Part shown: positions 18,001 through 27,000 of the stretch, piece by piece
Position numbering within the stretch: the stretch's first letter is position 1
How the letters are laid out: the number at the start of each line of letters is the position of its first letter
Origin: Escherichia coli
GTDB taxonomy: Bacteria; Pseudomonadota; Gammaproteobacteria; Enterobacterales; Enterobacteriaceae
Strand: one strand, 5' to 3'
Assembly: GCF_002854065.1 (NCBI RefSeq)
Contig: NZ_CP024152.1
DNA length: 64,000 bases
Position numbers: made by a program

Positions 18001-21000
18001 AGTGGCAATAGCCTCCATGAAAGAACGGTACTCACGCGCCTCACTGTCCATCCGGAAACCACTGTCACGTCCGTAATAAGCCGTCACACCGTCCACCGGG
18101 TTCTGAAGCGTATGCCCGGCGGGTTTGTCGCAACGGGGACCGAGGCAACGGATATCACCGTGTTCAACCAGGGCTTCGGCCTGCTGACCGGTGGCATAGT
18201 GGGTATGCAGGATGCGACCGTTCCAGGTCGGCTCACCGTGCAGGTGGCAGTAAACGGTACGGAACACCCCGTCGCGGCAAAAAACGGAAATCGTGCTGCT
18301 GACTGTCATGAAAACGTCTCCTTCTGCTGAATCAGGTCGCCGGGCCGACCGGTTGCTCCCCGGAGGGGCGAAAGCCCCTTCTGCCGTCCACTTCTTCGGG
18401 GTTTCTCCCCGCAGTGGACCTTTCCGATGGGGCGTCCGTCACCACGTCACGGGGCAGCTGTCCGGGGGCGGACGCAAAATTTTTTGCCGGGTTTATGGCT
18501 AAAAATTTTGTGGACGGTATATCTTCCCCTGGACTGCTGAAACGGGATGTGGTTACTCCAGCCCCCGGAAAGTCCACAGCGGGAAACAGGCCGCAGGGGT
18601 GGCGGCGGAAGGGTTGACTGCGCCATCAGGCGCAGTGGCCTTACACACCGTCAGGTGTGCAGGGAGCGCCGTTTCCGGCGCGACAGGGGCGGCGCGACCG
18701 GAACGGTCGCTGCAAGCCTGGTTTTTCAGACATCGGACCGTAGCGGCAGCCCGAAACCGCGCCAGCGGGTTCGGCGGAGACTGGCGGGTGCGCCAGCAGC
18801 TGCCTGTCGGAGTCGGGCCTGACGACCGGATGCCGCCAGGCAGCCGGGAGCCGAAGGTGTCCCCGCCTCCGGAAATCAGAACAACAGAAACGACATAACA
18901 GAAAAATGCCTCACACCATGACGGGCAGGAAGGGCAGCGCCGCAGGCGCGGCCCTCCTGCATTTCAGGCAGGCGTAAGCCTGCCAGGGTTTTCCGGCGGC
19001 CTGGCAGGCCATACCCCCGCCGGAGCGGGGGAGTAAATCACCGACGGAACACATGACCGTCAATAAAGGTGAAGGAGTCCAGGAATAAATCCCGCGCATA
19101 CGCCTCATAGTCAAAATAGAGCGCCACCGTCTCCGGCACGTCAGCCAGCAGGCCGGTATCACTGGCGAACTCAACCGCAAAAGCCTCCTCACTGTCAGCC
19201 TCGCCCCACCAGGCATCGCGGAAGGTGTCAAAATCCGTCTCACCGGTATCCTCCACCCAGAGACGATAAGCCTCTTCGCAGCCTTCATCCCGTGCCTGGC
19301 GGAAGCCTTCAACCCAGGCCCAGTTGATATGGCATTCAGAGGCCATATTCCCCGGGAATCCCTCATAATCCTGAAACATCAGTTCAGGATCGGCTTCATC
19401 CTGGTGAAGAGCACGGCAGGCGGCGAAAAAGTCGCGCTCATCATCAAACGTGGTCAGGTCAAACCAGCGTCCGGCGATGCTTCCACAGTTGTATTTGTGC
19501 CAGGTTCCAACGTATACAGCAGGTGCAACAACAGACATTCCCGAATCCTCCATAGTCACATGTTCTGCGGCACCGGGCGGTGCCGTGCCTCCATAAAAGC
19601 CGGGCGATAAGGCGGGGATGCATAGGGCGCAAGGGAAGCCGCAGCCTGACGCACACGGCTGGCGGGAGTTGGAGGGTGAGACCGCGAAATCTGAGCGGGT
19701 GAACGACCGGAAAATCACGGCAGACGGGAAGGAGGGACCGGGTGACCGCAGCGGCGAAGCGTACCCTTGCATCCCTGCCAGCCCGGCTAAGATGGAGGCA
19801 CGGCACAGCCCGCACACGACGCTGAGGCCACAGAGCTGAAAACCCACAAGGCCATGCCCCGCATGGCCGGGTAAAAGCGGAGCCGCCGGCGACTTCCTTA
19901 TTCCGGCGAGTGCAGAGGACACGCCGCATGACCTCCAGACCACCCCTGATATGAAACGATCATGATCGGCGTGTCCCTGCGTAAAATATACATGTCTGGT
20001 TCACCGGAGAATATCTGTGATATCCACAAGTTTTCTGTCGCACAGCCAGTCCTGCGCTTCACGCACCACGCTACTGTCGGGTTTCACCGCTTTCAGCGAT
20101 GATGCCAGTCGCTTGATCAACATAACCAGTTCCCGTGTCTGTATGTCCGGCATTGTCTCCGGCGGAGCAGAGGGACTCTCATTTCCGACGCCCATCCCAT
20201 GCGCTTCCAGTGTGGCACGGACAAACCAGGCGGCATCGACCAGTTGCTGGCGAATCCAGGTCAGATCGGCATTTCTGTCACGGGCTGCCATTCGCTCACC
20301 CGACAGCGCCTTGCTGATATGGCTGCGCACCAGATTATCCAGGAGTTCCTGCGCTTCTTCCGGTGAAAAGCCACCTGGTATCTCTGTGCGCAACAGTCCT
20401 TTCCTGTACAGTAGCTGCAGCAGATCAATCTGCGACCGCACTGCAACTATCAGTACATAACGGACAATATTCGCACTGGCGGTGGTTTCTGTATCATTCA
20501 GCAGTTCCTCCGGATCATTACCACCGGTATTGCAGAGCAACGGCAACAGAGGTCGCATCCACACGGGAACCTGATATTGTTCGTCTGATTTCATCATATT
20601 GCGTTCTCCAGCTTGTTCGGGATCATCCACTGCTCAAGTGCACGTACCTGTACCGGTGCACCACGACCGGCCTCACCGGCTTCAAAAATCAGCCGCCAGA
20701 GTGGTTCCTCCTGCCAGAAAAACCGGTCAAATGATGACAGTGATGGAAAACGCCCGCACCACCCCCAGAAAATCGTTTCCAGATCATGCTCCTCAACAAC
20801 ACCAGACCAGCGGGACAACCAGCTTCCGACCGTGGCGGGAGTATGAAACGCAAGGTCAATCTGCGCCTGAGCAAAACATGTCTGGTATTCCAGTTCCCGT
20901 CGTTCTGCCTCACGTTCCCGCTGGCGGCTGTATTTCTGCTCTGTCAGCGTGGTTTTCTGACGACGACGCTCACCTTCACGAAAAGGCACGGACGGGAACA

Positions 21001-24000: not shown

Positions 24001-27000
24001 TAAAGGAGCCGTCCGGCAGTCCCTGAAGTATTCTGAAATATTCGCTCATCCTCATATCTCCGGTGATGCCCCGCACAGGGCGGGGCGGTTGTCACAGTCA
24101 GCCCGATCAGAACGGGATGTCGTCTGAAAACCCGTAATCCTCCCCCTCCGGCGGTTGCGGCTGAGGCTCTGGCTGCGCGGCCTTACGTCCACGGCCTTTC
24201 GTTTTCGCGCCACCTTTTTTCGTCGCGTCAGCACTCTGTGGCTGCCCATTCTGCTGAGGCTTCGGTTGCGCCTGAGCGTTCTGCTGTGGTGCACGTCCCA
24301 GCATCTGCACGGTGCCCGTGGTCTTAACAAGAATTTCAGTGACGTAACGGGTGATACCGTTATCTTCCCAGCTACGGGTGCGAAGCTGACCTTCGATGTA
24401 GACCTGCGCACCCTTGCGCAGATATTCACCTGCCACTTCCGCGAGCTTGCCGAACAGCACCACGCGGTGCCATTCCGTCTGCTCCCGCATCTCCCCCGTC
24501 TGTTTGTCACGCCAGCTTTCTGATGTGGCCACCTGCAGGTTTGCCACTGCGCCCCCGTTGGGGATGTAACGGACTTCCGGATCATTGCCCAGACGCCCGA
24601 CGAGGATGACCTTGTTGATACCACGTGCACTCATAAGAACCTCCTGACTGAAAGATGTGAGATAAACCGGATACCGGCGACGGGACGTTCATGTGCCCCT
24701 TCAGAGGAGCGAAAGCTCCTCCTGCCGTCCACTTCACAGGGGTTTCTCCCCGCAGTGGACCTTTCCGATGGGGGCCCGTTTACCGCCTCACGGGACAGCT
24801 GTCCGGGGGCGGACGCAAAATTTTTAGCCGGGTTCATGGCTAAAAATTTTGTGGCCGGTGCATCTCACCCTGGACAGATGGAACGGGAGGGGGTTACGTC
24901 TGCCCCCCGGAAAGTCCACAGCGGGAAACAGGCCGCAGGGGTGGCGGCAGGAGGGAGGACTGCTGCGCCATCAGGCGCAGTTTCCTCACACACCGTCAGG
25001 TGTGCAGGGAGCGCAGGTCACGGCGCGACAGGGGCGGCGCGACCGGAACGGTCGCTGCAAGCCGGGTTTTCACGCATCGGACCGTAGCGGCAGCCCGAAA
25101 CCGCGCCAGCGGGTTCGGCGGAGACTGGCGGGTGCGCCAGCAGCTGCCTGTCGGAGTCGGGCCTGACGACCGGATGCCGCCAGGCAGCCGGGAGCCGAAG
25201 TGGGCGCAATAAAAGACAGCCAGAAACGGTGACAGTGTCACGGAATATCACACCTGTTCCCTGCATACAGCCATACACTACCTTCTGACCGGAAAGCCGG
25301 GCCGGCAGCGCCGCAGGCGCTGCACCCCGCATTTCCGGCAGGCGTCAGCCTGCCAGGGGTTTTCGCGCGGGCTGACAGGCGGCCTCCACCGCCTGCCCTG
25401 TATCACCTGTTTCTGCTGCCCTGAAGGATATAGTGACCACCGAGGAAAACCGCCTGCTGATTCGCCACAAAATCGCAGATTTCATCAACAATCTGCGCAG
25501 TGGTGAGCGGTTTCTGCCCCATTTCACGACGCCGCGCATTAATCACGGCTTTGTAATTGCGCAGAATTTCGCGGGTTTCTGTGCTGATATTCATGACATG
25601 TGCTCCCCGTCCAGCGCCTGTAACACAACGTCCATTGCTTCGCGTTCTTCCCTGACGAACGCATCACCGTCGCCCCCGTTCTCACTCCCGACGGCATACA
25701 GGCGCTTCATTTCACTGCCTGCCAGCGCCAACACTTTTTCCAGCATCACCGCCGGGACTGTCACCTGACGGCTGGCGCGCTTTTCTTCCATCAGTTCACG
25801 AACAACGTCGTGAACAACGCTGACATCCGCACCATGCTCAAAGGCATCGTCCAGCCGCTGCATGACGGTTTCCAGCTCATCGTCTGTCAGACTCCAGTCC
25901 TGGGCTATGTGACGCACATCCCCACGGGTCAGCACCACGGCAAAAACGCATTCACTGTCCGGCACGTCTGTATCCAGCACTTCGCGGATAATTTCTTTAA
26001 CAGTACAGTACATGTTCTCGTCTCCTTTACAGGGGCGGCATTGCCGCCCCGTCCGTTAATCAGTCCAGAGCCGCGTAAATCGCGTTGCATTCGGGGTGAA
26101 ATTCGATGTGACGCCACAACTGCGCATCGCGCATCCGGTAAAGCTGGGTCAGTCCTGCATCCCCGCTGTCGTGGTACAGCCACAACTGGCGGTTAATCAC
26201 AAGGGAGGTCAGGATGATGCCTGCGGCATCAGCACTCACGGTACGGTCAAACCAGTTTGCACCGTTCACCATGTGGAAACGGTCGCCATCCGGCATCATG
26301 TAACCGCCACCGTCCGGCAGGCGGATGAAGTGCCAGAAGCCTCCCTGATATTCCGGCATCATTTTTTGCGCCAGCGCGTACACATACGCCTCGGCATACA
26401 GAAAATCGTTGCCAAACAGATACGGCAGAAAGGAGAGACGGTCGCACTCTTCAACATTCAGAGTGACAGGTTTCGCATATTGCATGATGTTTTCCTCCGT
26501 TGTTCACATATTCCGCGACACCGGGCGGTGCCGTGCCTCCATAAAAGCCGGGCGAACAGGCGGGGATGCAGGGGCGCAAGGGAAGCCGCAGCCTGACGCA
26601 CACGGCTGACGGGAGTTGCAGGGTGAGACCGCGAAATCTGAGCGGGTGAACGACCGGAAAATCACGGCAGACGGGAAGGAGGGACCGGGTGACCGCCGCG
26701 TTCATTTTACCCTTGCATCCCCGCCAGCCCGGCTAAGATGGAGGCACGGCACAGCCCGCACACGACACGGCGGCCACATAACTGAAAACCCACAAGGCCA
26801 TGCCCCGCATGGCCGGGTAAAGCGGAGCCGGCGGCGACTTCCTTTGTGCTCTGTCCGGGACCGGCAGGAAAAAGGCGGGGATTTTCCCCGCCATCATCAG
26901 CCCCTGATTTTTGCCAGGGCATCCGCCACGCTACGGATTTCGGCCCGGGCTTCCCGGACAACTTCCCGCAGAACACAACGGTCAAACCACCGGCGGGGCG

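Follow-up and report, generated by a model that had tools for sequence, protein, structure and literature searches.

Two repeats that precede the ardA and klcA genes of an IncI-type leading region are probable class 2 single-stranded-DNA promoters

The window analysed here, a stretch of 64,000 nucleotides from Escherichia coli contig NZ_CP024152.1 (assembly GCF_002854065.1), is an IncI-type plasmid leading region. Its positions 17000-30000 are 100% identical to E. coli plasmid pWP2-W18-CRE-03_2 (IncI-gamma/K1, MOBP, MPF_I), and window coordinates equal those of the identical RefSeq record (L001) minus 1. The genes nikB and nikA and the origin of transfer (oriT) region lie at ~10.9-14.2 kb, and from oriT towards higher coordinates the leading region carries ardA, psiA, psiB, a ParB-like gene, ssb, klcA and a DNA methylase gene, all on the - strand. 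Because the 5' end lies at oriT and all leading genes are on the - strand, the + strand is the transferred strand and the template of these genes, an arrangement of leading regions described previously (Bates 1999; Samuel et al. Nature 2024). NCBIfam gave no model for ArdA or KlcA, and their identities are taken from RefSeq annotation and from the 99-100% identity of the proteins to those of the IncI1 plasmid pESBL. Each of these two antirestriction genes is preceded by a copy of a long repeat, and we are highly confident that each repeat is a class 2 single-stranded-DNA (ssDNA) promoter module (ssp2) of the IncI/IncF-type leading region. The element has already been published, and finding it in the window is a correct rediscovery.

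A sequence-only reading of the window had reported two ~350-bp copies, ~95% identical, directly 5' of ardA and klcA and about 7 kb apart. Repeat search and blastn found both copies at these places, in direct orientation with a spacing of 6.95 kb. The boundaries proved sharp and the approximate length held (~360 bp), but the identity was 92-93% rather than 95%. By blastn the copies were 92.1% identical over 355 nt (19546-19899 versus 26493-26844, E = 4e-144), and global alignment gave 90% over 362 columns. Within the repeats, co-linear blocks of 67, 129 and 114 nt (19556-19622/26504-26570, 19625-19753/26572-26700 and 19762-19875/26708-26821) were 93-98% identical, and the 100 nt on each side of the repeats showed random-level identity (19-23%). 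Since both served genes are on the - strand, the upstream side of the repeats is the side of higher coordinates; each repeat starts at the Shine-Dalgarno sequence of its gene (GGAGG at 19547-19551 and 26494-26498) and extends outwards for ~360 nt. The G+C content is 65% in the repeats versus 50% in the window. The Rfam search of window 14000-31000 returned no match at the gathering threshold, and blastn against the three copies of another repeat in the window, family A, returned nothing significant (best E = 0.37), in line with the earlier statement that the two families are unrelated. Open reading frames (ORFs) called across the repeats had been dismissed as not credible, and we reached the same view because 1-nt indels and paired compensatory changes distinguish relatives of the element; neither repeat has a gene annotated across it in RefSeq.

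On the + strand, each copy contains a long imperfect hairpin of ~240 nt, with basal arms of 32 nt that are 88% complementary and have 173-175 nt between them. Folding of the + strand as ssDNA, a check proposed with the sequence-only reading, gave -96.2 kcal/mol for copy 1 (z = -5.36) and -97.2 kcal/mol for copy 2 (z = -5.39), so that both copies fold at a rounded z of -5.4, and 0 of 100 shuffles were as stable. The - strand fold was weaker (-85.7 kcal/mol, z = -3.4). An arm-based pattern search of one-genome-per-species contigs identified 17 loci, mostly in Enterobacterales, and at least 5000 records of Enterobacteriaceae plasmids contain the element itself with an identity of 90% or higher. 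We aligned 24 sequences, comprising the 17 species loci together with F, pESBL and the metagenomic candidate Frpo'4, and obtained a 53-pair consensus hairpin in which 98.7% of cells were paired. Compensatory changes were seen in 23 of the 53 pairs, compared with 1-5 when the partners were slid by 1-3 columns and 14.5 +/- 1.6 in shuffles. There were 41 G.T pairs on the + strand versus 7 pairs that would be G.T on the complement, the bias that selection for the hairpin in the transferred strand, rather than in the mRNA-sense strand, should produce. Scanning again for a shorter-apex version yielded 98 elements in metagenomes, all with blastn similarity to the long class. In nearly all relatives the start codon lies 35-44 nt past the hairpin pattern. 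More than 100 relatives keep the element at a fixed offset from the start codon with compensatory variation, which bears out the earlier judgement that the two copies are no chance duplication.

The 3' arm of each hairpin carries a -35-like TTGCAT and a -10-like TAAGAT. The AAG of the -10-like hexamer lies opposite AAA in a 3x3 internal loop, and the distance between the two hexamers is 15 nt on the 3' arm and 19 nt on the template arm (mean of the arms, 17). Among 112 distinct hairpins, the last T of TAnnnT was present in 112 and TTG at the fixed 15-nt spacing in 101-108, and neither feature was imposed by the search pattern. This TTG-N3-N15-TAnnnT pattern is the conservation profile of a putative sigma-70 promoter pointing at the downstream gene. 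A scan for linear sigma-70-like promoter sites found zero in 19000-20100 and zero in 26000-27000, which contain the two intergenic regions. The arm geometry predicts leaders of about 48 nt for ardA and 49 nt for klcA, in which the Shine-Dalgarno GGAGG sits 8 nt before the ATG.

Hairpins of this kind have been characterized on other plasmids. Wen et al. (NAR 2025, PMC12672017) named the hairpins 5' of klcA and ardA in pESBL 'class 2 ssDNA promoters', with ssi1-3/Frpo as class 1. RNA-seq early in conjugation revealed six induced operons in pESBL, and class 2 promoters gave early induction of leading genes of up to ~500-fold; all six transcript starts were mapped by 5' rapid amplification of cDNA ends (5' RACE) and matched the hairpin predictions. 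That study also noted conservation of classes 2 and 3 in F. The F element, ssp2, lies 5' of the ArdB homologue yfgB and has been described as both a promoter and a UvrD-resolved roadblock to complementary-strand synthesis (bioRxiv 10.64898/2026.01.09.698686). According to this preprint, synthesis stalls at the base of the ssp2 stem, loss of ssp2 lowers transfer into restriction-proficient recipients, and ssp3 in place of ssp2 rescues transfer into EcoKI+ cells incompletely. A member of the class 2 family was listed earlier as candidate Frpo'4 (Samuel et al. Nature 2024).

The window copies showed 93-97% pairwise identity over the repeat to F ssp2 and to the pESBL hairpins that precede ardA and klcA, and an alignment of all these elements had 91% mean column identity, including the gene-side and outer flanks. 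Like class 2 elements, the window repeats combine this sequence homology with a site on the transferred strand of the leading region 5' of a gene and with a large stem-loop bearing -35 and -10 elements, which in the window we assigned ourselves. By the blastn comparison above, they do not belong to the Frpo/ssi class 1 by sequence homology; the element works like Frpo and stands outside that family. Of the two explanations offered by the sequence-only reading, a second type of ssDNA promoter is therefore the one supported by identity to class 2 promoters defined by RNA-seq and 5' RACE.

Several points weigh against reading the repeats as promoters. The non-template spacer of 15 nt is below the usual 16-18, and it would fit only if the effective distance were governed by the asymmetric internal loops, which leave 19 nt on the template arm. 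The -35-like hexamer is weak (3/6), and the methylase subgroup of relatives keeps TT only. The positions of -35, -10 and +1 in the window plasmid are predictions from arm geometry. In the covariation analysis, 11 pairs, including parts of both arms, were fixed by the search pattern, and most of the covariation reflects one deep split (7 versus 17 sequences), with fewer independent events than the cell counts suggest. Finally, the functional data come from the orthologues on pESBL and F rather than from the window plasmid: we obtained the repeat, its fold, the covariation, the wobble-pair strand bias, the promoter-like base conservation and the orthology in this analysis, and early induction and transcript starts were established on orthologues, the roadblock on F ssp2 only, and all would carry over by analogy.

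We propose that conjugation brings the + strand into the recipient with its 5' end leading, beginning at oriT beside nikA. While it is single-stranded, the ~240 nt upstream of ardA and of klcA would fold into the long imperfect hairpin, and its stem would rebuild a duplex sigma-70 promoter, with TTGCAT/TAAGAT on the 3' arm as the non-template strand and the -10 partly pre-melted in the internal loop. Host RNA polymerase would start near the base of the stem and read out along the 5' flank, giving an mRNA with a ~48-nt leader and a free Shine-Dalgarno sequence, and ArdA and KlcA could be produced ahead of the plasmid's conversion to double-stranded DNA open to restriction. On completion of the complementary strand, the hairpin would be lost and the promoter with it. 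As in the F orthologue, the hairpin likely also stalls complementary-strand synthesis until UvrD opens the stem, which would prolong the single-stranded, expressing state. With two hairpins in series, the klcA copy would hold klcA through psiA single-stranded, and the ardA copy would hold ardA and the oriT-proximal operons; the second roadblock, at the ardA copy, is extrapolated from the F data.

Beyond the promoter hairpin, each module contains a small 8-bp G+C hairpin that resembles a terminator, and relatives keep a small hairpin at the corresponding place with different sequences. Further out, at the outer edges of the class 2 copies, lies a distal box of the form AAGGAAGTCGCC...GCTCCGCTTT. 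In the window the boxes read AAGGA(A/T)GTCGCC, followed by GCTCC(G/T)C and a T-run, and the first half is Shine-Dalgarno-like (compare UAAGGAGGU). The window contains three matches to the box, all at module edges (both class 2 modules and a class 3 module upstream of the DNA methylase gene). Of 106 distinct distal flanks from relatives, 60 have the box, with a constant spacing to the hairpin, versus 0 in reverse-complement controls. A pattern search with fixed spacing between the two halves of the box gave no match, because this spacing varies. Two roles for the box were tried and not adopted. For a stable hairpin or terminator, folding of the distal 90 nt was no better than that of shuffles (z = -0.2 and +0.6), and only the 8-bp GGCCATGC hairpin was robust. 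For an anti-Shine-Dalgarno, in which the CTCC of the box would pair with the Shine-Dalgarno sequence of the gene in read-through RNA, the native pairings did not outperform shuffled or cross-paired controls. We also noted a canonical intrinsic terminator (GGCGGGGAAAATCCCCGCC then TTTTTCC) at 26874-26892 on the - strand, just outside the klcA copy, which ends the upstream gene (26897-27667); transcription arriving from upstream would therefore encounter as many as two terminator-like hairpins on its way to the promoter hairpin.

The strongest alternative to the class 2 promoter reading is that the hairpins act mainly in DNA processing, either blocking complementary-strand synthesis in the recipient by their structure or serving as priming signals for it, and we place this reading only slightly below an even chance. 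F ssp2, which stalls this synthesis and needs UvrD to be passed, is 94-97% identical to the window copies across leader and hairpin. The incomplete rescue by ssp3 in F also speaks for such a role, and two hairpins in series in the window would delay conversion first of klcA-psiA and then of ardA and the oriT-proximal operons. However, the same preprint also treats ssp2 as a promoter, and a pure roadblock would account neither for the TTG/TAnnnT signature nor for the constant spacing from hairpin to Shine-Dalgarno and start codon, nor for the 5' RACE results on orthologues. The roadblock role would be an additional function of the hairpin rather than an alternative to the promoter. An RNA-level role has also been considered, in which the element is in addition an insulator or translational lock on read-through transcripts, through tandem terminator-like hairpins or pairing of the distal CTCC with the Shine-Dalgarno sequence, and keeps ardA and klcA silent once the plasmid is double-stranded. 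Both copies and the class 3 module do have the small G+C hairpin with its T-rich tail and the Shine-Dalgarno-like/CTCC box on the upstream side of the promoter hairpin, the minimum-energy fold of the - strand pairs the distal CTCC with GGAG, and the complementarity reaches 10 of 11 positions in the methylase subgroup and 12 of 13 in class 3. Nevertheless, tests of pair probability and duplex energy were not significant (a fraction of 0.08-0.95 of shuffles was at least as good), the window Shine-Dalgarno was at least as accessible in full-length RNA as in RNA started at the promoter, and the distal segment, as noted, folds no better than shuffles. We consider this role improbable.

The other explanation in the sequence-only reading, a shared repressor target, would make the repeats double-stranded operators through which a plasmid or host repressor co-regulates ardA and klcA. 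One upstream element common to two antirestriction genes, a gene for a helix-turn-helix regulator nearby (~16035-16286) and the conserved distal box would all suit an operator. Yet neither intergenic region offers a linear sigma-70 promoter for a repressor to control, the published activity is specific to the single-stranded state, and conservation follows hairpin pairing over ~240 nt, with compensatory changes and a wobble strand bias, unlike that of a protein-binding site; we regard co-regulation by a repressor as unsupported and very unlikely. Even less can be said for a functionless duplication, a mobile repeat of the miniature inverted-repeat transposable element (MITE) or repetitive extragenic palindromic (REP) type, or real protein-coding ORFs, any of which would surprise us greatly. 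Two sharply bounded copies 6.95 kb apart, with long ORFs callable across them, might suggest as much, but the pattern of conservation contradicts the coding and mobile-repeat readings: the wide occurrence in plasmid records, the fixed offset from the start codon, the 1-nt indels and compensatory variation described above, and the lack of terminal repeats, target duplications or a RefSeq gene at the copies. The class 2 ssDNA promoter thus remains our preferred identification, and the coordinates of its parts and of the genes and hairpins around it are collected in Table 1.

Table 1. Positions of the class 2 modules, their parts, the served genes and related hairpins (window coordinates unless a locus is named)
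Feature	Position	Strand	Basis or remark
Repeat copy 1, whole class 2 module 5' of ardA	19546-19906	+ (transferred/template strand)	blastn versus copy 2; unrelated flanks; alignments with known elements
Repeat copy 2, whole class 2 module 5' of klcA	26493-26853	+	Repeat search; alignments; blastn
Long imperfect hairpin, copy 1	19574-19812; basal arms 19574-19605, 19781-19812	+	Inverted repeat, 88% complementary; ssDNA fold; covariation
Long imperfect hairpin, copy 2	26522-26758; basal arms 26522-26553, 26727-26758	+	Inverted repeat; ssDNA fold
Promoter-like elements, copy 1 (putative assignment)	19767-19793	+ (3' arm)	-35-like TTGCAT 19767-19772; 15-nt spacer; -10-like TAAGAT 19788-19793
Promoter-like elements, copy 2 (putative assignment)	26713-26739	+ (3' arm)	TTGCAT 26713-26718; TAAGAT 26734-26739
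Predicted ardA leader, ~48 nt	19539-19586	-	Start near 19586, opposite the base 7 nt past the -10; arm geometry
Predicted klcA leader, ~49 nt	26486-26534	-	Start near 26534; arm geometry
Small 8-bp G+C hairpin, copy 1	19850-19868		GGCCATGC-GGG-GCATGGCC (mRNA sense), then TTGTGGGTTTTC, T-rich; terminator-like, inside copy 1, distal to the promoter hairpin
Small 8-bp G+C hairpin, copy 2	26796-26814		Counterpart of that in copy 1
Distal box, copy 1	19888-19899	-	AAGGAAGTCGCC then GGCTCCGCTTTTA; outer edge of copy 1
Distal box, copy 2	26833-26844	-	Outer edge of copy 2
Distal box, class 3 module	29390-29401	-	Outer edge of class 3 module
ardA (166 aa)	19038-19538	-	Served by copy 1; RefSeq annotation; 99.4% identical to pESBL ArdA
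klcA/ardB-type antirestriction gene (141 aa)	26060-26485	-	Served by copy 2; RefSeq; 100% identical to pESBL KlcA, 97.9% to the F yfgB product
DNA methylase gene	28380-29063	-	Leading region
Class 3 (M.EcoGIX) hairpin 5' of DNA methylase gene	Arms 29122-29151, 29316-29345	+	ssDNA fold -100 kcal/mol, z = -7.1
Family A copies (class 1, ssi1-3/Frpo)	15570-15872; 18363-18995; 24704-25365		Match ColIb-P9 Frpo1-3 (ssi1-3), Samuel et al. Supplementary Table 2
Divergent class 2 subfamily before M.EcoGIX-like methylase (228 nt between outer arm ends)	L017 4734-4985; also L007, L011, L012, L020		Klebsiella, Cedecea, Enterobacter, Intestinirhabdus, Pantoea

The window holds three class 1 hairpin promoters, two of class 2 and one of class 3, which are the same six as in pESBL. 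The first 60 nt of the first family A copy (15570-15629) read identically to ColIb-P9 'Frpo1' as given by Samuel et al. (Supplementary Table 2). A 312-nt 'hypothetical protein' that RefSeq places across the class 3 hairpin (~29139-29450) may be a spurious call. In our searches no homology was found between the class 2 hairpin and the class 1 or class 3 hairpin, and the distal box was the sole shared piece (E = 0.003). Elsewhere in the window, a 109-nt sequence occurs as two direct copies (16339-16447 and 16563-16671) that are 224 nt apart and share 76% identity, at the boundary between a small hypothetical gene and a gene for an Rpn-family nuclease.

The sequence-only reading had taken the class 2 element to be private to ardA and klcA. 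This did not hold, as homologous hairpins elsewhere also precede genes for an M.EcoGIX-like methylase, a DUF1281 protein and a 153-aa protein. In Klebsiella pneumoniae ATCC 13883, Cedecea, Enterobacter sp. 10-1 and Pantoea, a class-2-type hairpin precedes a methylase gene whose product is 72-94% identical to that of the window, and in Intestinirhabdus a truncated orthologue behind such a hairpin is 77% identical over the available 53 aa. The orthologous methylase gene therefore stands behind a class 3 hairpin in the window and a class-2-type hairpin elsewhere. The short-apex version (~170 nt; loci L023-L116) precedes M.EcoGIX-like methylase genes in many metagenome contigs: 91 of its 98 elements had a callable downstream ORF, with 66 encoding the methylase, 8 KlcA, 11 the 153-aa protein and 4 the DUF1281 protein. 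The 153-aa protein (MFKLTCITLDDGVCALYINGQYLG..., for example at L109), found behind these 11 family hairpins, is unannotated and has no homologue in the window; by its position, its gene is a candidate early-expressed leading-region gene, possibly with an anti-defence function.

Comparison of the paralogous copies between plasmids revealed a second pattern. The two hairpins of pESBL are 98.5% identical to each other versus 93-95% to their positional orthologues in the window (19546-19810 and 26493-26760), whereas the distal 81 nt follow orthology, with the ardA copies 100% identical between the window plasmid and pESBL. The two copies evolve in concert, and the pattern points to gene conversion between them. 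We also searched with a chimeric query in which ardA was joined to the distal flank of the klcA copy, and found end-to-end matches in 28 plasmid records. In NZ_LR882979.1 (6739-8429), for example, ardA lies behind a class 2 hairpin with a klcA-type outer flank, and the whole 6.95-kb klcA-ssb-psiB-psiA segment is absent exactly between the repeats. To judge from their sequences, these 28 IncI-type records have lost the segment that recombination between the two direct repeats should remove.

A more speculative model would make the module a portable, three-part 'zygotic expression cassette', consisting of the distal box ((A/T)AAGGA(A/T)GTCGC...GCTCC(G/A)C, Shine-Dalgarno-like and then CTCC), the small hairpin and the promoter hairpin. 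The box would act in its own right, for example to insulate from read-through, to lock translation, or to signal loading or priming; the hairpin family would be exchanged among ardA, klcA and the M.EcoGIX-type methylase gene; and the two copies in IncI plasmids would form a natural recombination switch that removes klcA-ssb-psiB-psiA. We regard this model as a whole as doubtful.

If the proposed mechanism applies, the hairpins decide whether the antirestriction proteins of a resistance plasmid precede cutting by the restriction enzymes of the recipient, and would help to set the host range of the plasmid. The function of the element was published in 2025-2026, and the value of our analysis lies mainly in a correct annotation of the window. 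The 112-hairpin promoter signature, the methylase-linked class-2-type hairpins, the concerted evolution, the deletion variants and the distal box common with class 3 go beyond the cited papers and may interest the field of plasmid establishment.

The closest known systems compare with the window element as follows. Frpo1 and Frpo2 of F and ssi1-3 of ColIb-P9 (class 1; Masai & Arai 1997; Bates 1999; Couturier 2023) lie in the same leading region, and in them too a transferred-strand hairpin restores a sigma-70 promoter whose activity is limited to the single-stranded state. Class 1 differs from class 2 in having no sequence similarity to it and in serving other downstream genes (the ssb-psiB operon and others), and its transcripts are able to prime DNA synthesis, in contrast to the roadblock reported for ssp2. 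Class 3, represented by the M.EcoGIX promoter of pESBL and by ssp3 of F, likewise places a large transferred-strand hairpin 5' of an anti-restriction gene of the leading region and shares the distal box AAGGATGTCGCC with class 2. Its hairpin has another sequence, and roadblock activity is not reported for ssp3 (bioRxiv 10.64898/2026.01.09.698686). Among the candidates that Samuel et al. listed from an insect-gut metagenome (OFEI01000013.1), Frpo'4 aligns along the whole class 2 element, and Frpo*1 and Frpo*3 share both arms and have a shorter apex; in that study these were computational candidates only and were not set apart from Frpo as a class of their own. The class 2 promoters of pESBL and ssp2 of F match the window copies in sequence, position, orientation, downstream genes and hairpin, with no difference of kind. 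The window klcA copy differs in an alternative apical segment, TTCATTTT instead of CGAAGCG, which also occurs in relatives from Erwinia and Entomohabitans and in Frpo'4. The plasmids differ in copy number as well, F carrying one class 2 hairpin and IncI plasmids two.

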